From a virus, in IMG/VR virus record IMGVR_UViG_3300023296_001674: a stretch of DNA of 64,000 nt, one strand, 5' to 3'. The position numbers and the translations under genes were made by a program. The notes below the pieces were generated by a model that saw nothing but the letters and a program-made list of their open reading frames with translations, made no database searches and had not been told where the DNA came from. Positions 4,081 through 60,445 of the stretch are shown here, in pieces. Position 1 is the first letter of the stretch. Each line of letters begins with the position of its first letter.

Positions 4081-4296
4081 GTGATGACAAAAGTTTCACA
4101 TGTTGTATTGAGTGCAGAAGACCAAACCAAGAAAGATATCGAATCTTTAAAAACTATATTTACTGAACATGGTATATCGATTGGGTTAAATATTTTACAT
4201 AATGCATGGTCATATAGTTTAATAGAACAATGCCATATCAATCAAAGTGTTGTACACGCAGTAGATGAATATAATACATCAGTAACGGATAAATAG
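4081..4296 (+). CDS. hypothetical protein
   Basis: 71-aa ORF directly downstream of promoter and SD. Stop overlaps the next gene start by a TAGTAGTG junction. Confidence 0.35.
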   Translation: MMTKVSHVVLSAEDQTKKDIESLKTIFTEHGISIGLNILHNAWSYSLIEQCHINQSVVHAVDEYNTSVTDK

Positions 4297-4298
4297 TA

Positions 4299-4835
4299 GT
4301 GATTAAAGAGTTAAAAGATAGATATATTGATGATATAGGCAGGGTGATAATGACCACCGATGGTCTTATTGATATGTTAATGAAGCAACAATCAATCGAA
4401 GGTTTATTGGTTGAAGAATGTGACGACACACTTAAATATAATACAAATATCGATAACAACAAACAGTTAGAAATATACTCAGACGAGAAAGCGAACGAAA
4501 CACCTGATATATATGATTCAATTGCCACAACTAGGTGGAAAACACCAGAGAAATATCAAATTGCAGATGATGCATTAGTAACGTGGTTATTTGAGAAATG
4601 TAAATCTGAAAATGAATACAACAGAGTTTTAATGGAATTAGAAATGTTTGATGATCGTGGGTTATATCCATTACTTAAACATTTAATATTTTTGGTAGAT
4701 CATTTTAGAAAAAACAATATTGTATGGGGTATAGGGCGCGGATCGAGTGTTTCATCATATATTTTATTTCTCATTGGAATACACAGAGTTAATTCGATTG
4801 ATTTTAATTTAAACATCAACGATTTTTTAAAATAA
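4299..4835 (+). CDS. DNA polymerase III alpha (DnaE)-like palm-domain fragment (no PHP, no catalytic Asp pair, no fingers)
   Basis: C-terminal 70 aa (LYPLLKHLIFLVDHFRKNNIVWGIGRGSSVSSYILFLIGIHRVNSIDFNLNINDFLK) aligns with the DnaE segment GYFLIV..F...AK.[39 protein letters not shown]. The ORF stops right before the position of the catalytic PDIDIDF motif. Confidence 0.55.
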   Translation: MIKELKDRYIDDIGRVIMTTDGLIDMLMKQQSIEGLLVEECDDTLKYNTNIDNNKQLEIYSDEKANETPDIYDSIATTRWKTPEKYQIADDALVTWLFEKCKSENEYNRVLMELEMFDDRGLYPLLKHLIFLVDHFRKNNIVWGIGRGSSVSSYILFLIGIHRVNSIDFNLNINDFLK

Positions 4836-4846
4836 GGAAAAATTAA

Positions 4847-5209
4847 ATGGTAAAAAGACATAAAAGTGCTAAAGGTGATCAAATAGATTTTGATCTTTTG
4901 CAACTTAATAATAAAGAAGTGGTAGCCATTGGTAATGCCAGCATGAATGCAAACGGCGATACATTAGGAAGGGGTGGAGTAATTGTTCGAAAAGTAGACG
5001 ATATCCCCAAATCACAATTAGCAGACCCTAATGCAGCATACAATCAACAAAATCCAAAATCGACTAAATTAGTTAGTTTAAAGAGTGCAGTTGTAGTTGA
5101 TGACGTTGTTGTAGAAGCGACACCCGAAGTGGTGGTTGAAGAAACAGTCGTTGATGAAATCGAAAAAAAGCAAAAATCTAAAAGAAAAATAATTGACAGC
5201 GAAGAGTAA
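4847..5209 (+). CDS. hypothetical protein, possibly the degenerate continuation of the DnaE-like fragment
   Basis: Begins KGDQIDFDLLQ, reminiscent of the DnaE catalytic PDIDIDF region that would follow the upstream fragment. Rest is Val/Glu-rich and non-diagnostic. Confidence 0.35.
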   Translation: MVKRHKSAKGDQIDFDLLQLNNKEVVAIGNASMNANGDTLGRGGVIVRKVDDIPKSQLADPNAAYNQQNPKSTKLVSLKSAVVVDDVVVEATPEVVVEETVVDEIEKKQKSKRKIIDSEE

Positions 5210-5222
5210 AATGTAGTATACT
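5193..5222 (+). promoter_or_regulatory. sigma70-type early promoter (TTGACA-N18-TATACT) with AAATGTAGTAT word
   Basis: TTGACA at 5193-5198 and TATACT at 5217-5222. Gene starts at 5255. Confidence 0.45.
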
Positions 5223-5254
5223 TCATTATAATAAAGTATTAATGGAGTATACAA

Positions 5255-5644
5255 ATGGCTACCGATTTTGATTATAGTACAACTGGTGTATTAACACCAA
5301 TTCGCGATCATGTTATAGTTACAGAAATGGACAACGAAGATGAGCGAATAGTTAACGGCATCATTCTGTTAAGTGAAACAGGATCAGACCGTGGCATCCA
5401 CCCAAGACAAGCATATGTAACCGCAGTAGGGCCAGATCAATCAGATGTGGCACCCGGCGATTGGATATTGGTCGAACACGGACGATGGACACGTGGTGTA
5501 AAATTAGACGATGGAAATATATATCGCAAAGTTGACCCATCTTGCATATTGGGAATAACTGGCGATAAGACTGACGATCTTCAGGTAATGGGCGACAAAG
5601 TTGTTAATAATTCTAGACATAATATGGGCGGGTTTGACGAATAA
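5255..5644 (+). CDS. 31: GroES-like co-chaperonin (T4 gp31-like)
   Basis: TPIRDHVIV...GIILLSETG...VTAVGPDQSDVAPGDWIL matches the GroES/gp31 pattern (LPIRAVGEYVILV...GLIIG...VVHSVGPDVPEG..EVGD). Confidence 0.55.
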   Translation: MATDFDYSTTGVLTPIRDHVIVTEMDNEDERIVNGIILLSETGSDRGIHPRQAYVTAVGPDQSDVAPGDWILVEHGRWTRGVKLDDGNIYRKVDPSCILGITGDKTDDLQVMGDKVVNNSRHNMGGFDE

Positions 5645-5695
5645 ATCAAACGATTATACCAGTAAGTTATAACCCCCAATAAAGAGAAATAAAGT

Positions 5696-6619
5696 ATGTC
5701 AATTAAAGAATTATGGACCGAAAAATATCGTCCAAAACGAATCGAAGATTATGTATTTCGTGATGAAAAACAGAAAAAACAAATAGAAGCATGGGTTTCA
5801 GAAAAAGCAATACCACATTTGCTATTATCTGGCACCCAAGGTATCGGCAAAACAACAATCGCGAAGGTTTTATTTCGTGAATTAGAAGTTCCACCAGAAG
5901 ATATATTAGAGTTGAATGCCAGTGATAACACTGGTGTTGACGATATGAGAAATCGCGTTGGTAGTTTTGCAAGCAGAATGCCATTTGGTGAATTTAGATA
6001 TATTTTATTAGATGAAGCAGATTATTTAACACCTAACTCACAAGCAGTATTGCGTGGATATTTAGAGAAATATTCGGCAACCTCGAGATTTGTGTTGACC
6101 TGCAATTACGATTATAAAATCATACCAGCATTGAAAAGTAGAACGCAAGGGTTTCATTTAGAAAAACTTGATCGTGGTGAATTCGATATTCGAATTGCTA
6201 CCATATTGGCGTCAGAAGGCGTTGAATTTGATGCATCACTTATGGATTCATTTATTGAAGCCACATATCCAGATTTGCGCAAGTGTATTAATGATTTACA
6301 ACAAAACGTCGTTGATGGAATATTGACATTACCAGTGGTAAGTTCAGGCAATGATGATTATAAAATATTAATGGTTGAATTGTTTAAAGATAAAAAAATA
6401 AGAGAAGCAAGAAAATTGATTTGCACACAAGCAAGACCAGAAGAATATGATGATATATATAGATTTTTATATCAAAACTTGCAATATTTTGGTAATGAAC
6501 AAAATCAAGAAACTGCCATTATTAAAATAAAAGAAGGTTTGGTTAATCACGCTATTTGTGCCGATCCTGAAATAAATCTTGCCGCTACAATGGTAGAACT
6601 AGGATATTTGATGGAATAA
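5696..6619 (+). CDS. 44: sliding-clamp loader ATPase subunit (T4 gp44 / RFC small-subunit-like AAA+)
   Basis: N-terminal EKYRPKRIEDYV, Walker A LLLSGTQGIGKTTIAKVL, Walker B ILLDEADYL, and RFC-box-like SRFVLTCNY. Confidence 0.8.
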   Translation: MSIKELWTEKYRPKRIEDYVFRDEKQKKQIEAWVSEKAIPHLLLSGTQGIGKTTIAKVLFRELEVPPEDILELNASDNTGVDDMRNRVGSFASRMPFGEFRYILLDEADYLTPNSQAVLRGYLEKYSATSRFVLTCNYDYKIIPALKSRTQGFHLEKLDRGEFDIRIATILASEGVEFDASLMDSFIEATYPDLRKCINDLQQNVVDGILTLPVVSSGNDDYKILMVELFKDKKIREARKLICTQARPEEYDDIYRFLYQNLQYFGNEQNQETAIIKIKEGLVNHAICADPEINLAATMVELGYLME

Positions 6620-7441: not shown

Positions 7442-8042
7442 TATAATACTTTGCGATATCGATGGATGCTTGCTAAATTGGCTTGATTCATTCATTGATT
7501 ATATGAAAACCCAATGGGGCTATACATGGAACCATGAATTGGGTGAGCCACATCAATATGATATGGCACCACATTTTGGAATAACACATGACGAAGTTGT
7601 TATACATATAACAAACTTCAATGTTGGGTTCTGGCAGTTTGGTGCGTTAAAACCGACTGATGGTGCACAGGATGCTATGATTAAACTTTCTGATATGGGA
7701 TATAGATTTGTTGCTATCAGCAGTTGTTCCACTGATAATAGAACTGTTGCACTTAGAAAAGCAAATTTATATAATCATTTTGGTGATATATTCGATGATG
7801 TGCACTGTATTGACATACATGAAAACAAAAAATCATACTTAACAAAGCATCAACCAACGTTTTGGATTGAAGATAATTTCAACAATTGCGTTGATGGATT
7901 GCAGTATGGTCACAATTGTATACTTGTAAATAGAAATTGGAACGAAAATGATCATCATGATGAAATAACTCGATTTGATGAATGGTCGCAAATAGTTGAT
8001 TTCATTGGAGAAAATAAAAATTTTAATAAAGTCCGCACTTAA
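7422..8042 (+). CDS. HAD-superfamily 5'(3')-deoxyribonucleotidase-like phosphatase
   Basis: N-terminal IILCDIDGCLLNW is the DxDx(T/V) HAD motif I in the form seen in 5'(3')-deoxyribonucleotidases. Confidence 0.55.
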   Translation: MKQLANNIILCDIDGCLLNWLDSFIDYMKTQWGYTWNHELGEPHQYDMAPHFGITHDEVVIHITNFNVGFWQFGALKPTDGAQDAMIKLSDMGYRFVAISSCSTDNRTVALRKANLYNHFGDIFDDVHCIDIHENKKSYLTKHQPTFWIEDNFNNCVDGLQYGHNCILVNRNWNENDHHDEITRFDEWSQIVDFIGENKNFNKVRT

Positions 8043-8121
8043 TAGCACCCAATATTAGACTAAATACTATTAGGTTGAATGGCCGTTCGCCGCTTTCTTT
8101 TAACATAAGCAAAGGAGCATT

Positions 8122-8874
8122 ATGGTGACTAGACATAAAGCGAAACATAAAAAAAACAACCAAGGAAATCAACGATCTAACGATAATATCGTTAATATCA
8201 ATGATTATAAGACCCCAACGAAGAGTAGAAAGACAAAAGTAGATATTATACCACGAAATGAAGCACAGGAAGATTATATTTTCGCAATAGAAGATTGCAG
8301 AGTTGTGTTTGGTGTTGGCCCTGCTGGCACCGGTAAAACATATATTCCGACATTGATGGCAATCAAATCCCTTAAAGCAGGCGAAGTTGAAAAAATTGTA
8401 ATGACTCGACCGATGGTAAGCGTGGATGAAGATATAGGTGCATTGCCAGGTGCATTGCCAGGTGATATTGTGGCAAAAACTGCACCATGGGCTAGACCCA
8501 TTGTTGATATATTAGAAGAATTTTACCACCCAACTCAAATAGCATCAATGATGGAATCGGGAATTATAGAATTTTCACCATTAGGATTTATGAGAGGTAG
8601 AACATTTAAGAACAGCTTTATCATCTTCGACGAAGCACAAAATGCTACCGTATCGCAGATGAAAATGGTATTAACACGGATTGGTCAAGGAAGTCAGATG
8701 GTTATTATTGGCGACTTGAACCAACATGACAGAGGATTTGAGGCGAATGGCCTTAAAGATTTTATTGATCGTTCTATTAATTCAGAAAATATCGACGTAA
8801 TCGAATTTAGCAGGGGTGACATTGAGCGCGACGAGGTTGTTGCAGATGTTCTAGAAATTTACGGCGAAGAATAA
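8122..8874 (+). CDS. phoH: PhoH-like ATPase
   Basis: Walker A VFGVGPAGTGKTYI, Walker B IIFDEAQN, plus the characteristic PhoH core (MTRPMVSVDEDIGALPG, IIGDLNQ). Confidence 0.85.
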   Translation: MVTRHKAKHKKNNQGNQRSNDNIVNINDYKTPTKSRKTKVDIIPRNEAQEDYIFAIEDCRVVFGVGPAGTGKTYIPTLMAIKSLKAGEVEKIVMTRPMVSVDEDIGALPGALPGDIVAKTAPWARPIVDILEEFYHPTQIASMMESGIIEFSPLGFMRGRTFKNSFIIFDEAQNATVSQMKMVLTRIGQGSQMVIIGDLNQHDRGFEANGLKDFIDRSINSENIDVIEFSRGDIERDEVVADVLEIYGEE

Positions 8875-8893
8875 CAAAATCTCCTAATTGGTT

Positions 8894-8920
8894 AGGTGCA
8901 GATATAAAAATTCTGCACCT
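8894..8920 (+). terminator. hairpin (8-bp stem AGGTGCAG/CTGCACCT, 11-nt loop) after phoH; weak U-tract
   Basis: Inverted repeat 8894-8901 / 8913-8920 lies 20 nt after the phoH stop and is followed by AACTATTTG. Confidence 0.35.
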
Positions 8921-8926
8921 AACTAT

Positions 8927-8955
8927 TTGACATATCATCATTTTTAGTGTATTAT
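8927..8955 (+). promoter_or_regulatory. sigma70-type early promoter (TTGACA-N17-TATTAT)
   Basis: TTGACA at 8927-8932 and TATTAT at 8950-8955, upstream of the Vsr-like endonuclease gene. Confidence 0.5.
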
Positions 8956-8989
8956 ATCGAAAATATGAGATAAATCAATAATGTTTTTT

Positions 8990-9026
8990 ATGTATGTATA
9001 AATAGTATTACAGTTATTACATACAT
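8990..9026 (+). promoter_or_regulatory. 5'-UTR stem-loop (ATGTATGTA/TACATACAT, 9 bp) with a late TATAAATA box (8997-9004) in its 5' arm and loop
   Basis: Perfect 9-bp inverted repeat with a 19-nt loop. The TATAAATA box overlaps the last 2 nt of the 5' arm and the first 6 nt of the loop. It ends 9 nt before SD AAAGGA of the endonuclease gene at 9040. Confidence 0.4.
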
Positions 9027-9039
9027 AAAAGGATTTATT

Positions 9040-9933
9040 ATGAAATGCGAAAATGGTTGCGGCAAAGAATCTATATATATAACCAAGCGTGGAAGGCATA
9101 TATGCGCCAAATCTGGAAATTCATGTCCCGCTGTTAAAGAGAGAAAAAAACTATCGTATTTGAAAAAATATGGAGTTGAAAATCCGCAACAATCAAAAGA
9201 AATAAAAGATAAAACAAAAAAAACAAATCTTGACCGATATGGTTCAGAATATATTGTTATTTCTAAAGATTTTAATAAAAAAAGCAAAAAAACATTAATG
9301 GAAAATTATGGTGTCGAATATAATATGCAATCGGATATAATACAAAATAACAGAAGAAAAAAATCATTAGATATATATGGCGTAGATCATCAAAGTAAAC
9401 GTGAAGACATTAAAGATAAAAAAAGGCAGACGTCATTAAAACGATATGGGGTAGAAAGTTATTTTCAAACCGATGAATTTAGAGAAAAATATATAAAAAC
9501 AATGTTGGATAGATATGGCGTCGAGAATCCCATGCATGATAAAAAAATAAGAGAAAAATGTATTAAAGCTGCCATATCTTCATATTATAAAAAGGGCATA
9601 GGTATATCGTCTAACGGTGAACAGCGATGGCTTGATAGCCATAATATAGATATAAAAAATAGACAAAAAGTTATTGAATGTAACAGTGGCAAAATTTATA
9701 GTGTTGATGCATTAGTTGATAATACGGTTTATGAATATTTGGGTGTTTTTTGGCACGGACATCCAAAATATTTTGATCATGAAAAAATTAATACAGTCGT
9801 TGATATATCATTTGGCGAGTTATATATAAAAACAACACAGCGCATTAATGATATTATTGACACTGGATATGAAATTATTGTAGTATGGGAAGATGGAACA
9901 AATTTTACAGGAAATGAAATACATGAGACGTGA
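9040..9933 (+). CDS. freestanding homing-endonuclease-like protein: repeated YGVENP DNA-binding modules + C-terminal Vsr-like PD-(D/E)xK nuclease (mobile element)
   Basis: Five ~30-aa repeats ending in (K/R)YGVE(N/S). The C-terminus YEYLGVFWHGHP...GYEIIVVWEDG matches the Vsr motifs FVHGCFWHRH...GWRVLIVWE. Inserted between phoH and the topoisomerase gene. Confidence 0.6.
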   Translation: MKCENGCGKESIYITKRGRHICAKSGNSCPAVKERKKLSYLKKYGVENPQQSKEIKDKTKKTNLDRYGSEYIVISKDFNKKSKKTLMENYGVEYNMQSDIIQNNRRKKSLDIYGVDHQSKREDIKDKKRQTSLKRYGVESYFQTDEFREKYIKTMLDRYGVENPMHDKKIREKCIKAAISSYYKKGIGISSNGEQRWLDSHNIDIKNRQKVIECNSGKIYSVDALVDNTVYEYLGVFWHGHPKYFDHEKINTVVDISFGELYIKTTQRINDIIDTGYEIIVVWEDGTNFTGNEIHET

Positions 9934-11284
9934 TATGACATCAAGTGAATATATTTTAGATACATCAAAAGAATATTCTATATACACTTGCCACAAGCGC
10001 GGAATCCCAAGAGTCACCGATGGGCTAAAAAATGGTCAACGGCAAGCATTATGGCTTATTAGAAACAAAACAGAAAAAATAAAAGTTATTGCACTAGCGG
10101 GTGCAATGATTGAATCTGAATTATATCTTCACGGTGATAAATCTGCCGCTGATTCGATATCAAAACTTGCTGCACCTTTTTGTAATAACGTTCCTTATCT
10201 TGTTGGAAAAGGAAACTTTGGAACACGTGTATCACCCGTTGGTGGTATTGGTGCGCCAAGATATGTTTCAGTCAAAAAAGGCCAAGCAGTCGAACGGTTG
10301 ATATATCCTGATTTGGACATAGTTCCATTAATGGATAATCACGATGGTTCAACCAAAGAGCCTGAAACGTTCCTTCCTATCATTCCCACCGTTCTATTAA
10401 ATGGGGTAGCAGGAATTGCCGTAGGTTGGTCAACTGATATCCTGCCACATAAGTTAGAAGATTTAATAAAGGCTACCAAAGCAGCACTAGAAGGCAAGAA
10501 AGTGCCTAAATTGATACCATCATATGATTATTTTGATATCACAGTCAAAAAAGTTCCAGGTGTTGAAAATTCTTGGGAGTTTACTGGAAAAGTGGAAATC
10601 ATTAGCACAAGTGTCGCACGAGTTACCGAGTTACCGCCAGATTTGACATTAGAAAATTTTAGAGCACAGTTAGCACAAATGGAAGATAATGGCGCAATTA
10701 TGGATTATACTGACAAATCCACGAAAGCAATCAATATCGAAATTAAATTCAGACGTGGTTCACTTAAAGATATGTCACCTGAACAATTAATTGATACTCT
10801 TAAATTGAAATCTCGAAAAAAAGAACGCATCGTTGTTATTGATTGGGATGGACAAGCAATTCGCACATATGATAATCCCGAACAAGTTGTGGTTGATTTT
10901 GTTGCGTGGAGATTTACAAAATATATTGAACGTTATGAAAAATTGCGAGATGTAACTAATAGTGAAATAAAATTTTGGAAGGGTGTGCAAATGTGCTATC
11001 TTGATGATCTACCAGATAGATTAACAAAAATGGCAAACAAAGCGGAAATGGACAAAGAAATTCAAGATATAACAAAATCAGTCAAATTATCTGACGCACA
11101 GATTGATCGTATTTCGAATTTTGCATCATATAGATGGACTAAAGATGGATATAAACAATGTGTTGAAAAAATACATGAATTAGAACAACAATATAAAGAA
11201 TATATTAGATTGTTAAAAAATCCTGATGATATCAAAGATATTTTCATTGAAGAAATAGATGCATTAAAAAAGGTTAAGTTCTAA
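9893..11284 (+). CDS. 52: DNA topoisomerase II medium subunit (T4 gp52-like, GyrA-N-like, active-site Tyr region)
   Basis: CHKRGIPRVTDGLKNGQRQALW (cf. GyrA RAIPDVRDGLKPVQRR) and an APRYVSVKK Tyr motif. True start may be an internal ATG at 9914, 9923 or 9935; 9935 would just clear the upstream stop. Confidence 0.75.
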   Translation: MEQILQEMKYMRRDMTSSEYILDTSKEYSIYTCHKRGIPRVTDGLKNGQRQALWLIRNKTEKIKVIALAGAMIESELYLHGDKSAADSISKLAAPFCNNVPYLVGKGNFGTRVSPVGGIGAPRYVSVKKGQAVERLIYPDLDIVPLMDNHDGSTKEPETFLPIIPTVLLNGVAGIAVGWSTDILPHKLEDLIKATKAALEGKKVPKLIPSYDYFDITVKKVPGVENSWEFTGKVEIISTSVARVTELPPDLTLENFRAQLAQMEDNGAIMDYTDKSTKAINIEIKFRRGSLKDMSPEQLIDTLKLKSRKKERIVVIDWDGQAIRTYDNPEQVVVDFVAWRFTKYIERYEKLRDVTNSEIKFWKGVQMCYLDDLPDRLTKMANKAEMDKEIQDITKSVKLSDAQIDRISNFASYRWTKDGYKQCVEKIHELEQQYKEYIRLLKNPDDIKDIFIEEIDALKKVKF

Positions 11285-22517: not shown

Positions 22518-22594
22518 GGGCGTGTATTCCAACCGGTAGAGAAACGAGACTTAAAATCTCGACAGTGTGGGTTCGAATCCCACCACGCCTACCA
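22518..22594 (+). tRNA. tRNA with anticodon UAA (Leu by anticodon) but short 5-nt variable loop (class I architecture); CCA encoded
   Basis: Hand-folded cloverleaf: acceptor GGGCGTG/CACGCCT (G1-U72 wobble); D-loop with GG; anticodon stem CGAGA/TCTCG; loop CUUAAAA; T-arm GTGGG-TTCGAAT-CCCAC; discriminator A then CCA. Confidence 0.7.
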
Positions 22595-49371: not shown

Positions 49372-50673
49372 ATGACACATATATCGTTATATAATAGCAT
49401 GTCGAGAGAAAAAGAAAAATTCAAACCAATAGACGATTCTCGCGTAACTATGTATTATTGCGGTATCACCCCTTATGATAAACCACATCTTGGTAACGTA
49501 AGAGCGAGTATCACTGGTGATATGATATATAGACTGTTGCGGGTTTTTTATAAATCAGAAAATGTCATATATGCTAGAAATATTACTGACATAGATGATA
49601 AAATCGAAGCAAAAAGCCAAGAAACAGGAAGGTCTGCGATTGATATAACGAATGAAACTATTCAATGGTTTCATGAAACTATGAAAGTATTACATGTATT
49701 GCCACCGGATTTGGAGCCAAGGGTTTCTGATAATGAAGAATCTATGATGGATATGATTAACATATTACTTGATAAAAATATCGCATATAAATCAAATAAT
49801 GGTGACATTTATTTTGAATTAGATAAATTTCCAGAACACGGAAAATTATGCCGCCACAGTCGCGAAGATTTAAATATAAATGAAGAACATTCTTCAGAAA
49901 AAAAACATCCACAAGATTTTGTTTTATGGAAAGAAAATCATCAACGATTTGGTTGGCATATTGAATGTTCCGCGATGATTAAAAAGCATTTGGGTGACAC
50001 TATCGATATTCATGGTGGTGGTGGTGATTTACGTTTCCCACATCATGAGAATGAAATAGCTCAAAGTGAAACTGCTAATGGTGTCCCATTGGCTAATTAC
50101 TGGATGCATAACGGTATGATTACAGTGAACGGAAAGAAAATGGCTAAATCTACTGGAAGCTTTATTACAGTCGATGAAGCACTAGATCGTGTTCCCGGCG
50201 AAGCGATACGATTTTACATGCTTAAGACGCATTACCGTAAACCGTTTGATTGGTCGTGGGATGGTTTGATGGAAGCCAAGTCTGAACTTGATGGGTTATA
50301 TAGAAAGATGCAGAAACGCACTTATGTTAAAATGGGTGGCGTGTCAGTACAAGTATTATATGCGTTGGCTGATGATTTGAATACACCATTGGTGATATCA
50401 GAATTATACAAAGAAGCGGATAAGGAAATATCTTCTTTATTGGATTCGGCGCAGCTATTGGGTATACTGAATCATACACCAGAAGAATGGTTTCATGGCA
50501 CAACGAAAGATTCATTACTTGATGCATCGTCAATCGAGGCACTTATTGAAGTACGGAAACTATTGAAAGAAAATGGCGACTATGAATCTGCGGATATAAC
50601 AAGAGATATATTATTAGGACAAGGCATTATACTTGAAGATAAACCAGATGGGACAACTTGGCGAAAAATATGA
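49372..50673 (+). CDS. cysS: cysteinyl-tRNA synthetase
   Basis: Collinear with E. coli CysRS: YYCGITPYDKPHLGNVR (HIGH-type motif reads HLGN), NITDIDDKI, WHIECSAM, IHGGGGDLRFPHHENEIAQS, KMAKSTG (KMSKS), C-terminal ILEDKPDGTTWRK. Zn-ligand Cys/His positions are conserved. Confidence 0.85.
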   Translation: MTHISLYNSMSREKEKFKPIDDSRVTMYYCGITPYDKPHLGNVRASITGDMIYRLLRVFYKSENVIYARNITDIDDKIEAKSQETGRSAIDITNETIQWFHETMKVLHVLPPDLEPRVSDNEESMMDMINILLDKNIAYKSNNGDIYFELDKFPEHGKLCRHSREDLNINEEHSSEKKHPQDFVLWKENHQRFGWHIECSAMIKKHLGDTIDIHGGGGDLRFPHHENEIAQSETANGVPLANYWMHNGMITVNGKKMAKSTGSFITVDEALDRVPGEAIRFYMLKTHYRKPFDWSWDGLMEAKSELDGLYRKMQKRTYVKMGGVSVQVLYALADDLNTPLVISELYKEADKEISSLLDSAQLLGILNHTPEEWFHGTTKDSLLDASSIEALIEVRKLLKENGDYESADITRDILLGQGIILEDKPDGTTWRKI

Positions 50674-53333: not shown

Positions 53334-53936
53334 ATGCAGTTTCCATTCATCAAATCAAATGTAACATTGGGGCTATTCATGAAAAATGAATATGTCAAAG
53401 TGAAATCACGATATACCAAATTATATGAACTTGCGAGACATTATTGGTTTGAATTGGTTTGTTTATCTATTTTAATGATGGTTATTATATCAAGTATGGA
53501 TAAAACATATACGCCAGTGGTTATAACACCAGTAGGTGTGGAAACAACATCAAACACTATCGCCGTTCAACCATCAAATACATACATTGATTTAAATTCA
53601 ATTGTGCGATATAAATCGACGATGATGGACAATGAAACTGTTGGTGATATAGAACGGCACGATCTTATTAATGCGCATGAAAACAAGTTTGTTGGTCAAC
53701 GTATAATTCACACTGGCAAACTTGATATAATAGATACAAAATATGATCATTATGCATTATATATATCAACCGCCAGTATATATGATGACGCGAAGTGTAA
53801 AATTGATATAGATGATAAAAAAATAATATATACACTACGCGAGGACGCAATTGTAACTATAAAAGGGTCAATTGAAGAAATCACGTTCAATTATAATATT
53901 GCAGATTGCGTTGTTGTGATGCCTGATGAAAAATAA
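53334..53936 (+). CDS. membrane protein (single TM)
   Basis: Listed ORF 53292-53936 trimmed to ATG 53334, after the basic ORF stop. TM segment HYWFELVCLSILMMVIISS. Confidence 0.4.
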   Translation: MQFPFIKSNVTLGLFMKNEYVKVKSRYTKLYELARHYWFELVCLSILMMVIISSMDKTYTPVVITPVGVETTSNTIAVQPSNTYIDLNSIVRYKSTMMDNETVGDIERHDLINAHENKFVGQRIIHTGKLDIIDTKYDHYALYISTASIYDDAKCKIDIDDKKIIYTLREDAIVTIKGSIEEITFNYNIADCVVVMPDEK

Positions 53937-54190
53937 TGAGTGATGAAAAATCTATATTTCATGACGTTGAAGAATCCAACACCGACGTGGGAATTGAGTA
54001 TACACTTTGGGGAAGTTATGATATAATCATCGAAGTTATGAATTGGCTACATGAACATTATCCATCGACGTGGGGAATTGAATGGACTGTCGATCATCAT
54101 AATAGACACGACGCGATAAACGTTGTATTCAATTTAAAAGAATGCAATACTGATGCAGCACTTATGGGGTTTAAATTGAGATGGTTGTAA
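53936..54190 (+). CDS. AFKLRW-family small protein
   Basis: MNWLHEHYPSTWGIEW motif and C-terminal AALMGFKLRWL-stop. ATGA overlap upstream. Confidence 0.5.
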   Translation: MSDEKSIFHDVEESNTDVGIEYTLWGSYDIIIEVMNWLHEHYPSTWGIEWTVDHHNRHDAINVVFNLKECNTDAALMGFKLRWL

Positions 54191-54573: not shown

Positions 54574-54849
54574 ATGAAAATTAACTGCGTGGAAAAAATG
54601 GATCATAAACCGGCATATGAAACTGTTGATGTTTGTAATGACGGAATACAGGTACATATAATAAAACAGTGCCCGGCAAAATATACATGTTTGTTTCCTA
54701 CTAGAAATGAGGCAATTATTTTTATTCGTGAATTGAAAAAAATACCAAGTATTGATTATCAACAGTATCATTTGGGTGATAGAAATCTATTGGAAGTTAA
54801 TATTCATTCGAAAGACGCATTATTTTTGTTTTCATTGAGATGGTTATAA
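54574..54849 (+). CDS. AFKLRW-related small protein, SLRW subfamily
   Basis: C-terminal KDALFLFSLRWL-stop. First of three tandem SLRW-type paralogues. Confidence 0.45.
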   Translation: MKINCVEKMDHKPAYETVDVCNDGIQVHIIKQCPAKYTCLFPTRNEAIIFIRELKKIPSIDYQQYHLGDRNLLEVNIHSKDALFLFSLRWL

Positions 54850-54850
54850 T

Positions 54851-55129
54851 ATGTCAATACATATAGAATGCGTAAATCGAATGATTGAACGACCTGTATT
54901 CGTAGACATCGAAACTGTTGGTGGTAGAGGTGTTATAATACAAGACCAGCATGATTCGATACCAGCAGAATTTAATATATTTTCAGATACGAATAAAGAG
55001 TTGCATAAAATAATGAATGAAATATCACGTATGCATGGTGTAACAATTACAGATACTCGTGATCTCTGGGCAACTATTAATGTTAATACAAAAGAATCAT
55101 TGCTTTTGTTTTCATTGAGGTGGCGGTAA
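54851..55129 (+). CDS. AFKLRW-related small protein, SLRW subfamily
   Basis: C-terminal KESLLLFSLRWR-stop. Shares VPAEF(N/I) and HxxxxxxVxT with its neighbours. Confidence 0.45.
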   Translation: MSIHIECVNRMIERPVFVDIETVGGRGVIIQDQHDSIPAEFNIFSDTNKELHKIMNEISRMHGVTITDTRDLWATINVNTKESLLLFSLRWR

Positions 55130-55130
55130 T

Positions 55131-55412
55131 ATGACGGAATTGTATATACATCAAACTGTGCGGATGCACCATAAGCCATCATTTGAACAATACAACACCT
55201 TGGGTGGTGGTGGTTACATCAATTATACGAATGAGTTTGTACCAGCAGAATTTATTTGCAACGCAGATGATTCTGCAACATTACTTGCGTTTATAGACGA
55301 GTTGAGAATATTACCCGGTCTTCAAGTTGACAGAGAGCATCATCAATCTGAGATTACCGTTAAAATTCATTCAAAAGAAACATTATTAATATTTTGGTTG
55401 AGGTGGATGTGA
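55131..55412 (+). CDS. AFKLRW-related small protein, SLRW subfamily
   Basis: C-terminal KETLLIFWLRWM-stop. FVPAEFICN matches the previous paralogue. Confidence 0.45.
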   Translation: MTELYIHQTVRMHHKPSFEQYNTLGGGGYINYTNEFVPAEFICNADDSATLLAFIDELRILPGLQVDREHHQSEITVKIHSKETLLIFWLRWM

Positions 55413-55570
55413 TGTTATATAGATTTAAAGATATGGACGTTAAGCCGGATGAAAACATAAAAGAATGGTGCAATGAAAATTTAACAGACGGTGAAGTAGA
55501 ATTTGGTGCTACTACCATTTACATACAATCGGAGATAGATGCAATGGCGTTTGAATTAAGATGGATTTAA
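55412..55570 (+). CDS. AFKLRW-family mini-protein (52 aa); missed by the 60-aa cutoff
   Basis: MLYRFKDMDVKPDENIKEWCNENLTDGEVEFGATTIYIQSEIDAMAFELRWI-stop contains both the WCNEN and AMAFxLRWI signatures. TGATG overlap with the upstream gene. Confidence 0.45.
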   Translation: MLYRFKDMDVKPDENIKEWCNENLTDGEVEFGATTIYIQSEIDAMAFELRWI

Positions 55571-55572
55571 CA

Positions 55573-56295
55573 TTATTTATGTTTACAATTGTCATTATGC
55601 CACCTATTTAATGCTCCATAATTTCGAGTTGATAAATTGCAATGAGGGCATGTTTTATATGGCTGTGATAATTTTGCTTTAGACATTTTATTTTTAGCCG
55701 ATATTGTTTTAGGTTTTCCTTTTGCCGCATTGCTCATTTTTTGTTTAGTTGTTTCGGAGTGTGTTCTTCCGTATTTACCTGTTAATGCCGCGCTAATACA
55801 TTTTTTAGTTTCTTTGCTGAGTTTTTTACCTATATTCGCCAAAAATAATTTTTGTTTGGTTTCTGCTGTATGTTTTTTGCCTACCCCCGCTAAAGATAAT
55901 TTTTGTTTGGTTTCTTCTGATAATTTCTTACCTTTATGAGCATTGCTTATTTTTAATTTAGTTTTTTCAGTATGTTTGTATCCACTTTTACAATAAAATT
56001 TATTGTCGCCGTTGTGTTGATTTAGATAATTTGTATTATTGGCTGCGTCAATTTTTGATAAAACTTTGCTTTCCCATAATCTGGCTTTTTTTGGATTATT
56101 TGGAAATTCTTTACGTATTTCATATATAAAATTTTCTAATCCATATTTTTGTATAAGGCTTTCGATAATTGCCGATGAAGTAAAATATGTAGACCACAAA
56201 TCAGATGGGTGGCAGTTTTTAGCATATCTTACCCCATAATAATGTTGGCCCGTTTCTAAAAAAGTTATGCGATATGTATAAGGTATATGATTCAT
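55573..56295 (-). CDS. GIY-YIG homing endonuclease with NUMOD3 repeats (Seg-like; mobile element)
   Basis: N-terminal YTYRITFLETGQHYYGVR (GIY-YIG). C-terminal repeated KGKKLSEETKQKLS / IGKKLSKETKK / GKYGRTHSETTKQKMS NUMOD3-type units. Confidence 0.75.
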   Translation of the reverse strand: MNHIPYTYRITFLETGQHYYGVRYAKNCHPSDLWSTYFTSSAIIESLIQKYGLENFIYEIRKEFPNNPKKARLWESKVLSKIDAANNTNYLNQHNGDNKFYCKSGYKHTEKTKLKISNAHKGKKLSEETKQKLSLAGVGKKHTAETKQKLFLANIGKKLSKETKKCISAALTGKYGRTHSETTKQKMSNAAKGKPKTISAKNKMSKAKLSQPYKTCPHCNLSTRNYGALNRWHNDNCKHK

Positions 56296-56322
56296 CTTGA
56301 TTTTCCTTGGCTTTTATGATAG

Positions 56323-56330
56323 TATAAATA
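56323..56330. promoter_or_regulatory. TATAAATA late-type box in the divergent region between the GIY-YIG gene and thrS
   Basis: Exact TATAAATA ~95 nt upstream of the thrS ATG. Strand assignment ambiguous. Confidence 0.3.
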
Positions 56331-56425
56331 ATAAAGTAGTGGGACAGCCCAACTTCCTTGGCGGGTTTTAGTTGTTGAAACCAACTAATTACCACTATAT
56401 CTATTTATTTTTTGGAGTTAAAATC

Positions 56426-57643
56426 ATGAATGACCATCGCGAGATTGCTACAGCTTTAGACTTATTTCATTTTGAGGAGCATTCACCAGGAATGGTATAT
56501 TGGCATCCTGAAGGGTTTAAATTATATCGAACCATAGAAGAATATATGCGAAGCATGCATGAAAAATATGGATATAAAGAAATTAGAACACCAATAATGG
56601 TCAATAAATCTTTATGGAAATTGTCTGGTCATTGGGATAAATTTCAAGACAATATTTTTATTGCTGGTGAAATAGGTGAAGTAATAAGCGATGAGTTAAT
56701 TTATACTGACGGGCAATATGTAATGTCTCCGATGAATTGTCCAAATCATATACAAGTGTACCAAAAGGGAACAAAGTCTTACAAGATGCTACCTGATCGT
56801 TTATTTGAATTTGGTGTGGTGCATCGCAATGAACCATCTGGATCATTGGCTGGCATTATGAGATTGCGAAGTTTTACACAAGATGACTCGCATATACACT
56901 GTACTGAAGATCAAATTTTGAGTGAAACAACCAATTTTATCAATATGCTTCAAGAAGTTTATTCTAAGTTTGGGTTCAATGACGTCGCTGTAAAACTTGC
57001 CACTCGATGTGAAGAACGCATTGGCGACGATGCCAGTTGGGATAAAGCCGAGAAAGCATTAGAAGATGCTTGTATACATCTTGGATTGGAATACACAATT
57101 AATCCCGGTGAATCAGCATTCTATGGCCCAAAACTTGAGTTCACGCTACAAGATAGCCTTGGTCGTGATTGGCAATGTGGAACCATCCAGATTGATTTTA
57201 ACATGTGCGAACGATTGGGTGCTACATACATTGACGAAAATGGTGATAAGAAACATCCGGTATTGATTCACCATGCTGTATTGGGAAGTTTGGAACGCTG
57301 GGTTGGTGTATTGCTTGAGAACAGCAATGGTGAACTACCGTTGTGGCTTGCCCCTACACAAGTGGTTGTTGCCAGTATTACCAGTGATGTTAATGACTAT
57401 GCTGAAGAGAAAATGGTTACACTTAGTGGTATCGGATATCGAGTTGAGTTGGATGACCGAAATGAAAAAATCGGTAAGAAAATCAAAGACGCACAGAAAC
57501 GACGTATTCCATATATGCTTATTGTGGGTAAAAAGGAAAAAGAGAATCAAATGGTCAACGTTCGCAAATTGAACGGCGACCAAGATGATATGGAGTTGAT
57601 AGATTTTATAGGATCATTCGTCAAATCTACAAATGAAAGGTGA
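56426..57643 (+). CDS. thrS: threonyl-tRNA synthetase catalytic core + anticodon-binding domain, lacking the N-terminal TGS and editing domains
   Basis: Trimmed to ATG 56426 with SD GGAG. Starts at the class-II core (DHREIATALDLFHF.EHSPGMVYWHPEGFKLY, cf. E. coli ThrRS ~res 242 RDHRKLG..L.LF...). Class II motifs 2/3 and the C-terminal anticodon-binding fold are present. ~405 aa vs ~640 for full-length ThrRS. Confidence 0.8.
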   Translation: MNDHREIATALDLFHFEEHSPGMVYWHPEGFKLYRTIEEYMRSMHEKYGYKEIRTPIMVNKSLWKLSGHWDKFQDNIFIAGEIGEVISDELIYTDGQYVMSPMNCPNHIQVYQKGTKSYKMLPDRLFEFGVVHRNEPSGSLAGIMRLRSFTQDDSHIHCTEDQILSETTNFINMLQEVYSKFGFNDVAVKLATRCEERIGDDASWDKAEKALEDACIHLGLEYTINPGESAFYGPKLEFTLQDSLGRDWQCGTIQIDFNMCERLGATYIDENGDKKHPVLIHHAVLGSLERWVGVLLENSNGELPLWLAPTQVVVASITSDVNDYAEEKMVTLSGIGYRVELDDRNEKIGKKIKDAQKRRIPYMLIVGKKEKENQMVNVRKLNGDQDDMELIDFIGSFVKSTNER

Positions 57644-57836
57644 ACGTGTTTTTGATAAAATGAAACTCCCATATCCATGTTACGTTAATTATGGCGTTGA
57701 CCCAGATATGGTAATCGAATGGTGTGATGAGAATATCGAGTGTAAATGGGGGTATTTTCATCAAAATAACGGAACTCTTTATATATACATTACAGATGAT
57801 GTATATGGAATTGCATATAAGTTAAAATGGTCTTGA
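57633..57836 (+). CDS. AFKLRW-family small protein
   Basis: IEWCDENIECKW motif and C-terminal YGIAYKLKWS-stop. Overlaps the thrS 3' end. Confidence 0.45.
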   Translation: MKGERVFDKMKLPYPCYVNYGVDPDMVIEWCDENIECKWGYFHQNNGTLYIYITDDVYGIAYKLKWS

Positions 57837-57887
57837 CTGTTTTTATTTCTGTGTTAATATACGTATGAATATTAATGGAGAAGTAAA

Positions 57888-58193
57888 ATGGGCATGTTTG
57901 ATTGGGTTAAAAGTGAATATTCGCTGCCACAAATGCAACCACCAACCGATGAGTTTCAAACCAAAGACGCTTTCTGCAATCTTGATGTATACACATTAGA
58001 TAAAGATGGCATACTGTGGGTTGAATATCAAGATTGGAGCATGAATGATCTTGGTGATAAAAAACTATCACATTTTGATGGCGAAATGTATTTCTATGGG
58101 TCTACCAAAGCTACAGGGCGCATGCAAGAATACTTAGCAGTATTCATTGATGGGACACTTGAAACAGTAGAGAAAGTTAATTATGGGCCGTAA
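57888..58193 (+). CDS. hypothetical protein
   Basis: 101 aa, SD GGAGAAG. Confidence 0.4.
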   Translation: MGMFDWVKSEYSLPQMQPPTDEFQTKDAFCNLDVYTLDKDGILWVEYQDWSMNDLGDKKLSHFDGEMYFYGSTKATGRMQEYLAVFIDGTLETVEKVNYGP

Positions 58194-59337
58194 ATCAAGA
58201 CAGCGCGAAGAAGAAATGTTGGCTGGTGAACAAAAAATCACCAACCGCTTGAGTTCGCATACGTCACAAACAAAGAAAAAATTTGGCGCACTTGGATGGC
58301 AGGAAGTTATATTCAAAGCGATTGCTGAAAATCATAAACATTGGATCAATGCACCATCAACGTGGGTGAACACCAAAAAAACTAAAAATATAGACGCGTT
58401 GCGCCACGACATGGTTCGTTATGTATTCGGTGTATACAAGTGTCCCAAATTTCTTGAAGACGTTTGGCTCCCAACCCATCGCGAAACATATAATTATGCT
58501 AATCATAGACGGCATGAATCAGATGAAATTGAGAATAAAGATGTTCATTATGTTGCATGGTATCTAACTGTCGCACAGGGCGGATCGTTATATAAGTCCA
58601 ACACCAAAGGTATACTGACCAAAAAAGAAACACATGCATTTTTACATGCACCCAAGAATAACACAGTCAAACAAAATATTTGGTGGGCACGTGCTTATTG
58701 CGAGAGTGATAACATTGGAACAGCAACAAGAATTGCTCAATCCAGACTTGTAAATCGCTCGATGTCTAATGAATTTTGGATTTCGGTGATGAGATTCTTT
58801 TCAAAATATCCAACCAGCGTCAATGAAATAAATGATTTGTTGGATTATTTTATATACGCATTACAAGAAAACGAGGATTACACACTTAAAGGTCGTTCAT
58901 TGGAAGCGGTAAAAATTAGTTGCGTGGAATGGCATAGATTTCTTAACAAACAAAAATCTATTGGTGGTGGAACGTGGGCTGGAAGTGCCGTTGATAACGG
59001 AAGTTATACCACAGGAAAAGATGAACATAAAGTCAAGTGGTTGATAACACAAATCAGAACAGGCAATGAATTACTCAAAGAAGGGCAGAAAATGCGCCAT
59101 TGTGTTGTTTCATACAAACGACGATGCTCAGAAGGGCATTGTTCTATTTGGTCACTAACTTCACATGATATGATTGGTAATAACAAACGCTGTTTAACAG
59201 TCGAGTTATCTAGTAACAATCAAATCATTCAGTGTCGTGGATTGGCGAATCGTATGCCGAGACCAATTGAAAATAATATCCTTGGACGATGGTGTGTTGA
59301 TAATAGTCTTCAGGCCAATCGTAATTCAAGATGGTAA
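58183..59337 (+). CDS. hypothetical protein with Cys/His-rich C-terminal domain
   Basis: 384 aa. C-terminal MRHCVVSYKRRCSEGHCSIWSL...CLTVE...QCRGLANRMP (PcfJ-like?). Very tentative. Confidence 0.4.
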   Translation: MGRKSRQREEEMLAGEQKITNRLSSHTSQTKKKFGALGWQEVIFKAIAENHKHWINAPSTWVNTKKTKNIDALRHDMVRYVFGVYKCPKFLEDVWLPTHRETYNYANHRRHESDEIENKDVHYVAWYLTVAQGGSLYKSNTKGILTKKETHAFLHAPKNNTVKQNIWWARAYCESDNIGTATRIAQSRLVNRSMSNEFWISVMRFFSKYPTSVNEINDLLDYFIYALQENEDYTLKGRSLEAVKISCVEWHRFLNKQKSIGGGTWAGSAVDNGSYTTGKDEHKVKWLITQIRTGNELLKEGQKMRHCVVSYKRRCSEGHCSIWSLTSHDMIGNNKRCLTVELSSNNQIIQCRGLANRMPRPIENNILGRWCVDNSLQANRNSRW

Positions 59338-59753: not shown

Positions 59754-60173
59754 ATGAGCGACACAGATGAAATAAGAACACCAGTAGAAAATATTGATGC
59801 AATTCTTGATGTCGACAATTATTTTAATTTGCAAGAAAAAATTCACAATTATTTTGGATATGTTGAAGATTGGAAAGTGATGGCATTGGTCGATCATCGA
59901 TCTGATTATTGGATATTACACGAAATTAAAAATGATGACGGTGAAACATATGGCGGCGAAGTTTTTTATCACGATGATCCATTTATAGATGGATATAAAA
60001 CCGAAGGAAATTACTACAGCGCAGTTCTTTATATGCAACGATTTCTTCCACAGTGGATATATCGTACAAAAGATTTTACCATGATTTGTATGGACACGCA
60101 ATGCGACGATAACAAATATATTGGTATATTTTCTAATATGAATGAACAACCAAATATAGTTCCATACGTATGA
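59754..60173 (+). CDS. hypothetical protein
   Basis: Listed ORF 59550-60173 trimmed to ATG 59754 (TGATATG junction with the upstream stop). Confidence 0.4.
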   Translation: MSDTDEIRTPVENIDAILDVDNYFNLQEKIHNYFGYVEDWKVMALVDHRSDYWILHEIKNDDGETYGGEVFYHDDPFIDGYKTEGNYYSAVLYMQRFLPQWIYRTKDFTMICMDTQCDDNKYIGIFSNMNEQPNIVPYV

Positions 60174-60445
60174 TAATACGTTATTCAGACTCTTCAAAAT
60201 TTTGGAGATATTTAACATTATTTATATTGCCAAAACATAAAGCACGTGTATATAATGCAACAGATGAGGAAATAAACGAGTTAAAAAAATGGCTGAGTGA
60301 TCAAAAAATATGGTTTTTTAGTAATAAAATAGATTACTACTCTGCTAAAAATGCGGATCATGCAAAATCATCCAAACCATTGATAACAATACATATTAGA
60401 GATGAAGAAGTATTGATGGGTATGAAATTGGCATGGGAAAATTAA
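60170..60445 (+). CDS. small protein, divergent AFKLRW-like end (...LMGMKLAWEN)
   Basis: C-terminal EEVLMGMKLAWEN-stop. ATGA overlap upstream. Confidence 0.35.
   Translation: MIIRYSDSSKFWRYLTLFILPKHKARVYNATDEEINELKKWLSDQKIWFFSNKIDYYSAKNADHAKSSKPLITIHIRDEEVLMGMKLAWEN

Follow-up and report, generated by a model that had tools for sequence, protein, structure and literature searches.

A threonyl-tRNA synthetase gene without N-terminal domains

The 64,000-nucleotide (nt) stretch of DNA from IMG/VR virus record IMGVR_UViG_3300023296_001674 that was analysed here, hereafter called the window, carries a gene, thrS, for a threonyl-tRNA synthetase (ThrRS) made up solely of a catalytic core and an anticodon-binding domain. 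The open reading frame (ORF) starts with an ATG and encodes 405 amino acids (aa), and P0001, the protein of the public gene call, is identical to it. An alternative longer ORF from a TTG at 56372 has no counterpart in the related locus L004. The parts of the gene are as follows.

56426..57643, plus strand: thrS, N-terminally truncated (deltaN) ThrRS, 405 aa, stop codon included (Pfam, NCBIfam and PDB matches)
56414..56417, plus strand: Shine-Dalgarno sequence GGAG, 8 nt 5' of the ATG, read from the sequence
56426..57325, plus strand: class II catalytic core, about aa 1-300, with motifs 1-3 and zinc site (tRNA-synt_2b at aa 96-299)
56702..56734, plus strand: insertion of ~11 aa (GEVISDELIYT region), a gap in 17/17 other rows of alignment A1 and in the PDB alignments
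57359..57613, plus strand: HGTP anticodon-binding domain, aa 312-396 (PF03129, E-value 4e-19)

Pfam finds just two domains in the protein, tRNA-synt_2b at residues 96-299 (E-value 5e-44) and HGTP_anticodon. The NCBIfam model TIGR00418 (thrS) matches at 489.8 bits, above its equivalog cutoff of 383.65, and is covered from position 171 to 559 of 565. Residues 2-391 align with residues 242-621 of Escherichia coli ThrRS (1qf6) and, at an E-value of about 1e-124, with residues 1-381 of the engineered 242-642 constructs; the natural N-terminus lies one residue before E. coli residue 242, which is the boundary of the laboratory deltaN-ThrRS. Since the alignment begins at E. coli residue 242, the TGS domain (N1) and the N2 editing domain are absent. 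Indeed, the protein has no match to the TGS family PF02824, a profile of the ThrRS N-terminus (described below) has no match anywhere in the window, and the N2 editing domain tRNA_SAD (PF07973) was found neither in the protein nor in window ORFs of 90 aa or more. At the E-values of the domain matches, chance is no concern. A preliminary description of this DNA, made from the sequence alone, had read the ORF as a ThrRS that starts at the class II core, runs through the anticodon-binding domain and misses the TGS and editing region. Pfam, TIGR00418 and the PDB alignments agree on its extent, and domain annotation, which gave only the core and the anticodon domain, bears out what is missing.

The catalytic site is retained and the gene is conserved

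The numbering and roles of the key residues of the E. coli enzyme, known from ThrRS structures, were transferred to P0001 through the PDB alignment. P0001 retains every ligand of zinc, ATP and threonine.

Zinc ligands: E. coli C334, H385, H511; P0001 C105, H156, H282
Motif 2: E. coli R363, E365; P0001 R134, E136
Active site: E. coli R375, F379, Q381, D383; P0001 R146, F150, Q152, D154
Active site: E. coli Y462, K465; P0001 Y233, K236
Active site: E. coli Q479, T482, Q484; P0001 Q250, T253, Q255
Motif 3 region: E. coli S517, R520; P0001 S288, R291

All of these residues are invariant across the 18 short ThrRS sequences of alignment A1, except the zinc ligand C105, which is kept in at least 90% of the rows. 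Mutated motif 2 or motif 3 residues, which had been proposed as the mark of a pseudogene, are thus not seen in A1. The ~11-aa insertion is unique to P0001 within its clade.

An AlphaFold model computed from alignment A7 reached a mean predicted local distance difference test score (pLDDT) of 85.4 and a predicted template modelling score (pTM) of 0.85; confidence is low in the motif 2 loop and in the 11-aa insertion (low pLDDT at residues 84-93). The model superposes on truncated E. coli ThrRS 242-642 (8wih_A) with template modelling (TM) scores of 0.94/0.94 and a root-mean-square deviation of 1.6 Å, on 1EVK with TM scores of 0.91/0.92, and on yeast mitochondrial MST1 (4yye_A) with TM scores of 0.90/0.88.

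Stop codons were found within none of the nine homologous genes with DNA sequence, all of which are intact. Between these genes the proportion of nonsynonymous differences (pN) was 0.16-0.38 and that of synonymous differences (pS) 0.68-0.86, the latter being saturated, and the corresponding rate ratio dN/dS was 0.08-0.27 where computable. Intact ORFs, conserved sites and a pN far below pS therefore indicate purifying selection on thrS and not a pseudogene.

The short form is shared by phage relatives in different genomic settings

The 15 closest database relatives of P0001 (53-74% identity, 391-407 aa) have the same two domains, and the next matches are full-length proteobacterial ThrRSs with 52-56% identity. 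In a neighbour-joining (NJ) tree of the core region common to all, the 16 short forms (P0001-P0014, P0042 and P0102) are monophyletic with 100% bootstrap support, and they have in common the signature replacements of HRAILGS by HHAVLGS and of ERF by ERW.

These relatives occupy at least six distinct phage contexts, with unrelated genes directly upstream of thrS. One context is that of L004/L005, on contigs of 135-257 kilobases (kb), where the enzyme is 72% identical and the locus is syntenic with the window; both have the gene order cysteinyl-tRNA synthetase (CysRS) ... thrS - PcfJ ... His_Phos_1 - Thg1 - DUF3307. In both L016 and L018 thrS is preceded on the plus strand by an unrelated gene, at a distance of 35 nt in L016 and of 4 nt in L018, while L012 is a T4-like contig (Portal_T4, Gp23) with NifU upstream of thrS. 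L009, L014 and L017 present yet other gene settings, the upstream neighbour being unrelated in L009 and L014. On the downstream side, one neighbour of truncated thrS is conserved.

58183..59337, plus strand: PcfJ-like protein (PF14284, E-value 1e-15)

PcfJ follows truncated thrS in four lineages; besides the window, the pair is present in L004-L006, L016 and L017. Because the same short form stands in differing genomic settings, the truncation predates the divergence of these phages, and the comparison of their sequences indicates that the ancestor of the clade had already lost N1 (TGS) and N2 (editing) at the boundary between linker and core.

GenBank phages gave no megablast match to positions 55000-59000 of the window. 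An exact-peptide scan of IMG/VR with P0001 returned no relative, and the P0001 clade is not in IMG/VR; only a search with the alignment brought up truncated forms there, which are more distant.

One protein that had seemed to be a truncated bacterial ThrRS, P0091 (412 aa, SAR116-like clade), was set aside: its N-terminal 129 aa sit in a separate upstream ORF, and it is therefore a broken full-length gene. In the SAR116-like loci L010 (2205-3971) and L011 (1655-3421) the split thrS lies in a normal thrS-infC-rpmI-rplT-pheST operon, with residues 1-129 in a separate ORF and about 100 editing-domain residues missing; the state is the same in two assemblies.

The upstream homing endonuclease and the thrS leader

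Two features lie directly upstream of thrS.

55573..56295, minus strand: Seg-like free-standing homing endonuclease with NUMOD3 repeats, probably of GIY-YIG type, 240 aa (NUMOD3, phrog_314, similarity to Seg proteins)
56305..56422, plus strand: conserved divergent intergenic region and thrS leader, 87-92% identical to L004

The preliminary description had placed a homing endonuclease gene upstream on the other strand, and this was confirmed. The 240-aa product has four NUMOD3 repeats (E-value 1.5e-18), matches phrog_314 homing endonuclease (E-value 2.4e-34) and is 31-33% identical, over 98-100% of its length, to Seg proteins of T4-like phages, including SegD of KVP40. Against the SegE GIY-YIG family PF19835 it scores 20.6 bits, under the cutoff of 25, and its segment YTYRITF...HYYGVRY resembles the GIY-YIG motif as judged by eye only.

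The further idea that the endonuclease had replaced the 5' part of thrS does not hold. The same boundary is found in the 15 clade relatives and in about 19 other phage ThrRSs, and since the relatives have it with unrelated genes upstream, the endonuclease is best seen as a later local insertion and not as the cause of the truncation. An upstream in-frame exon was looked for around thrS and none was found, and an Rfam scan of 55500-57700 for a group I intron, T-box or leader gave only two sub-threshold chance matches. Within the relatives' contexts the endonuclease was not detected, except that L004/L005 have a 40-codon GIY-YIG-like ORF where the window has the 240-aa gene. In L004 this minus-strand ORF (9746-9925, 40-59 codons, starting MNNQNKKHHYVYKITNLSPMGDQIYYIGVRS) has the same place and orientation as the window endonuclease; the similarity of the 40-codon stub to the latter is not significant (E-value 0.45), and the stub probably represents a Seg-like gene that has either decayed or is a different one. 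Taken together, the comparison indicates that the Seg-like endonuclease came later, into the intergenic region, and is lineage-specific. A short gene beside a homing endonuclease is no evidence of truncation by it; comparison with relatives decides.

The leader at 56305-56422 is 87-92% identical to L004 (about 9880-10000), compared with about 75% for the thrS coding sequence. It contains a hairpin, AGUUG-UUGAAAC-CAACU, enclosed by a closing stem GUAGUGG/CCACUAU. Its fold is not better than that of shuffled sequences (z = -0.54), Rfam gives no match, and the loop UUGAAAC holds no NGU mimic of the Thr anticodon. An E. coli-like thrS operator in the leader was for these reasons (the fold and the loop) dropped. 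The conserved stretch could be a shared promoter or leader, or a gene-conversion tract of the endonuclease.

Search for a separate editing module

A profile was built from the first 250 residues of 101 full-length bacterial relatives; it recovers the N-termini of control loci at E-values of 8e-81 to 8e-115. It found nothing in six frames of the 64-kb window (best E-value 0.64), nothing in neighbourhoods of about 20 kb around L004-L009 and L012-L019, and nothing in 204 kb flanking 18 further phage loci. Likewise, Pfam on all window ORFs of at least 90 aa revealed no TGS, tRNA_SAD, YbaK-type or DTD family, the matches being complete to an E-value of 0.01 for 27-63 kb and to 1.5e-4 for 3-27 kb. 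A stand-alone editing domain, the presence of which would have spoken against an editing-free enzyme, was thus not found within the 64-kb window, which is about 11% of a genome of ~570 kb.

Truncated ThrRS in other phages and its tRNA-Thr neighbours

IMG/VR was scanned with core motifs that match full-length enzymes too, and 65 loci were returned. About 46 of these lie at contig ends and represent host thrS at prophage borders; all have the N-terminal domains and so serve as an internal positive control for the scan. The 18 internal phage loci, on phage contigs of 30-608 kb, are truncated without exception (18/18; 377-490 aa, starting 2-25 residues before the DHR motif), with no match to the N-terminal hidden Markov model on either strand within ±5 kb. 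The 636-kb phage LR756504 encodes a 386-aa ThrRS truncated at the same point, and in a library of representatives at 50% identity another nine clusters or more, of about 400 aa, start at the same motif. In NJ trees the short forms split into two or more groups plus singletons, and the support for deep nodes is weak. This scatter suggests that the loss of the N-terminal half is either very old or recurrent in phages.

Several genes were not counted as phage genes. The sole internal full-length locus in IMG/VR, L076, has neighbours like those of a bacterial biosynthetic cluster: its ThrRS gene (4272-6197) lies among genes of cupin, methyltransferase, pyridoxal phosphate-dependent decarboxylase-like and major facilitator superfamily transporter type, and it resembles a self-resistance copy in such a cluster. 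The top INPHARED matches, 'Acinetobacter phage MD-2021a' and 'Vibrio phage Va_..._p16', are host thrS-infC-rpmI-rplT operons.

Five truncated-thrS loci (four distinct sets) adjoin tRNA-Thr genes, which suggests that these enzymes work on tRNA-Thr.

L008/L051, at L008 5929-6000, 7168-7255 and 7261-7348: tRNA-Thr genes beside truncated thrS, one ending 1 nt before the ATG
L082, 4642-4951: three tRNA-Thr isoacceptors immediately upstream of thrS
L065, 4460-4535: tRNA-Thr beside truncated thrS
L018/L019, at L018 6140-6227: tRNA-Thr beside truncated thrS

Some of the phage tRNAs have unusual shapes. The tRNA-Thr(CGU) of L018 and the tRNA-Thr(UGU) and tRNA-Asn(GUU) of LR756504 are 88 nt long with a long variable arm of 4 base pairs; in bacteria this class II shape is normally confined to tRNAs for Leu, Ser, Tyr and Sec. 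The long-arm tRNAs of L018 and LR756504 retain G1-C72 and C2-G71. Class II-shaped tRNA-Thr genes are those at L018 6140-6227 and L008 7261-7348. Conversely, L073/L074 have a tRNA-Ser(UGA) of 76 nt.

The phage genome and the rest of the window

A protein identical to P0001 is encoded on metagenomic contigs of about 570 kb. On the contig ena:ERZ27315719:k141_202852 (570,549 bp) the window matches about 105,021-169,020 in reverse orientation. The medium subunit of topoisomerase II in the window is nearest to that of Sinorhizobium phage Phosso (469 kb, 54%), followed by Agrobacterium phage Atu_ph07 (490 kb, 49%). As judged from these matches, the window belongs to a phage of roughly 570 kb that is related to Phosso and Atu_ph07. 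Its genes include CysRS, SmpB, peptide deformylase, DnaJ, a ClpB-like ATPase, PhoH and two tRNAs, and a Thg1 gene lies just past the window end. The phage belongs to the type of huge phage, well stocked with genes for translation and proteostasis, that PMC7162821 describes.

49372..50673, plus strand: CysRS, 433 aa (tRNA-synt_1e, E-value 3.7e-94), syntenic with L004/L005
40005-42263: ClpB-like ATPase (Pfam)
53936-54190, 54574-54849, 54851-55129, 55131-55412, 55394-55570, 57633-57836 and 60170-60445: small ORFs with an LRW motif
L004 9487-9654 and 11199-11405: small ORFs with an LRW motif

The aminoacyl-tRNA synthetase (aaRS) cluster is variable between close relatives: L004/L005 have a gene for a 502-aa methionyl-tRNA synthetase-like protein (7974-9482) between CysRS and thrS, which the window lacks at that place. 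The small ORFs scattered around thrS form a paralogous family of 55-93 aa with a shared C-terminal motif, ...(F/A)(E/K/S)LRW(I/L/M/S), and gave no Pfam or PHROG match. One of the window tRNAs, tRNA-Leu(UAA) at 22518-22594 (77 nt), is unusual among bacterial-type tRNAs for Leu in that its variable arm is short (class I shape). Among the ORFs of alignment A5 (2925-27454), Pfam found FliM (E-value 2.8e-22) and the FliG middle domain (E-value 5.4e-17), both flagellar switch proteins, together with cREC_REC, Macro, MazG and SmpB. Those of alignment A6 (27472-62745) include an anti-Pycsar protein Apyc1 (E-value 2.7e-26), peptide deformylase, DnaJ, DUF2333 and two N6_N4 methylase fragments.

Discussion

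That thrS of this phage is intact, and its truncation ancient and independent of the endonuclease, is close to certain. The zinc ion of ThrRS excludes valine but not serine, and the N2 domain clears Ser-tRNA-Thr (PMC7373986, PMC4787780); deltaN ThrRS has null editing, although a second ThrRS can edit in trans (PMC4787780). In E. coli, moreover, the N-terminus is the part that blocks the ribosome in thrS autoregulation (PMC7373986). Against this background, the phage protein probably acts as an editing-free ThrRS that charges tRNA-Thr in infection, with the host ThrRS proofreading in trans or the errors being tolerated. By homology to the engineered deltaN-ThrRS, the enzyme probably dimerises and activates threonine on its zinc site, and, like that E. 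coli protein, it would recognise the anticodon and the acceptor of tRNA-Thr in charging it. Hydrolysis of Ser-tRNA-Thr in cis would not be expected. The gene would provide extra ThrRS capacity in infection that escapes the autoregulation by the N-terminus known in E. coli, and proofreading would come from the full-length host ThrRS in trans, or else the phage would tolerate the errors made in the course of a short infection. Among the readings in the preliminary description, three in number, that of an editing-free phage ThrRS is the one that fits these results.

Several points weigh against this interpretation. Activity, dimerisation and mischarging are all predicted from homology, and proofreading in trans would presuppose a host ThrRS that persists through infection. 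In the relative P0008 the zinc-ligand Cys is replaced by Tyr, and neither the window nor the 10 kb around its thrS contains a tRNA-Thr gene. The trees are NJ trees only, with 47-65% support for the deeper groupings, and the search for an editing protein covered 64 kb plus about 3.6 kb of the ~570-kb genome.

The last point bears on a split enzyme, in which a separate phage editing protein encoded elsewhere in the ~570-kb genome keeps fidelity. There is an archaeal precedent in ThrRS-cat plus freestanding ThrRS-ed of some Crenarchaeota (PMC7373986), and the genome carries many genes for translation (SmpB, peptide deformylase, CysRS, Thg1 and tRNAs). Since the search reached about 11% of this genome, such an arrangement keeps some probability; yet the N-terminal profile was null in the window, in the relatives' loci and in 204 kb of other flanks, and Pfam on window ORFs of at least 90 aa showed none of TGS, tRNA_SAD, YbaK or DTD, so we judge it unlikely. 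A truncated remnant, with an endonuclease or other event having destroyed the 5' half and the rest decaying as a pseudogene, is hardly credible. It could draw on the homing endonuclease directly upstream and on the full-length ThrRS of the related jumbo phage Phosso, but more than 30 phage genes that lack a homing endonuclease share this boundary, the genes are intact, with conserved catalytic residues, a pN far below the saturated pS and a ribosome-binding site at proper distance, and the Phosso ThrRS is not sister to the clade.

The third of the early readings was a decoy. Here the deltaN protein would bind tRNA-Thr-like operators, of host thrS or its own leader, without repressing, so that host thrS is derepressed or some other regulatory role is served, rather than mainly charging tRNA. 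As far as the account in PMC7373986 (citing Caillet 2003) goes, deletion of the N-terminus abolishes autoregulation in E. coli, whereas recognition of the operator lies with the anticodon-binding parts. In addition, the leader at 56305-56422 is better conserved than the coding sequence between two phages. On the other side, a full catalytic site under selection is needless for a pure RNA binder, homologues adjoin tRNA-Thr genes, and the leader has a loop, UUGAAAC, that is no NGU mimic, a fold equal to that of shuffles and no Rfam match. Moreover, no thrS operator of the E. coli type is known from the alphaproteobacteria that probably serve as hosts. With nothing specific in favour of it, we regard such a role as quite improbable. 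Somewhat more improbable still is that the editing-free ThrRS is retained for a benefit to the phage from Thr/Ser ambiguity, or from an orthogonal charging channel, created by the enzyme or by its pairing with unusual phage tRNAs. Class II-shaped tRNA-Thr genes with a long variable arm do stand beside deltaN thrS in two other lineages, and editing-defective ThrRSs cause mistranslation in Mycoplasma (PMC7373986); however, the window has no such tRNA, the other adjacent tRNA-Thr genes are normal (72-77 nt), and no sign of a benefit from mistranslation was seen.

The architecture itself is known. The engineered E. coli deltaN-ThrRS (242-642; 1EVK, 1EVL, 8WIH) has the same two domains with an N-terminal boundary within one residue, shares the active site, and compares with the phage protein at 45-46% structure-based and about 50% sequence identity and TM scores of 0.91-0.94. 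It is a laboratory construct, whereas the phage protein is the product of a natural gene fixed in a viral clade and differs by the clade-specific substitutions R512 to H (HHAVLGS) and ERF to ERW and by its own 11-aa insertion. Yeast mitochondrial MST1 (3UGQ, 4EO4, 4YYE) is, like the phage protein, a natural bacterial-type ThrRS without an editing domain (sequence E-value 2.6e-75, 32-33% identity); unlike it, MST1 is organellar and also charges the unusual tRNA-Thr1. MST1 has pre-transfer editing. Crenarchaeal thrS can be shortened without an editing domain as well (PMC7373986), as in the ThrRS-cat/ThrRS-ed pair (Aeropyrum pernix ThrRS-1, 3A31; TM score 0.81), but these enzymes are archaeal, 25% identical to the phage protein and served by a dedicated freestanding editing partner, of which none was found in the window. 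A model for phage plus host is given by T2 with T1 in Anabaena (PMC4787780), two ThrRSs in one cytoplasm of which the poor editor is served in trans, although T2 keeps an impaired N2 domain and T1/T2 are chromosomal paralogues under zinc regulation.

The huge phages of Al-Shayeb et al. 2020 (PMC7162821) provide the same setting of tRNA, aaRS and translation genes, and LR756504, from that kind of data set, also has a truncated ThrRS; the main text of that paper contains neither the term 'threonyl' nor 'editing' with respect to aaRSs, and no ThrRS domain content. Phosso, the closest cultured relative by topoisomerase II (54%), also encodes a ThrRS (XYS97722.1), but this has 640 aa and the full length, including TGS and N2, whereas the enzyme described here is truncated. 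The Phosso ThrRS falls outside the truncated clade and is therefore a separate acquisition. In the literature searched, nothing was found on a phage ThrRS without an editing domain; the architecture is known from deltaN-ThrRS, MST1 and ThrRS-cat, and what was not found there is its setting in a bacterial-type clade fixed in phages.

A broader proposal, which we hold to be rather unlikely, is that loss of the TGS and editing half is a general, selected design of phage ThrRS and not an accident of a single genome. If true, phage ThrRSs would escape the host control that depends on the N-terminus and, with phage tRNA-Thr (some with a Ser/Leu-like long arm), would form a separate, proofreading-free charging channel, which would rely on trans-editing by the host or deliberately loosen Thr/Ser fidelity in infection.

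ThrRS is the textbook example of a synthetase dependent on post-transfer editing, since its zinc site is unable to reject serine. Phage ThrRSs that have lost the editing module, often beside their own tRNA-Thr, form a natural experiment on the fidelity that a virus needs. It could show whether host enzymes proofread for viral ones, and it suggests that minimal synthetases may evade host feedback control.

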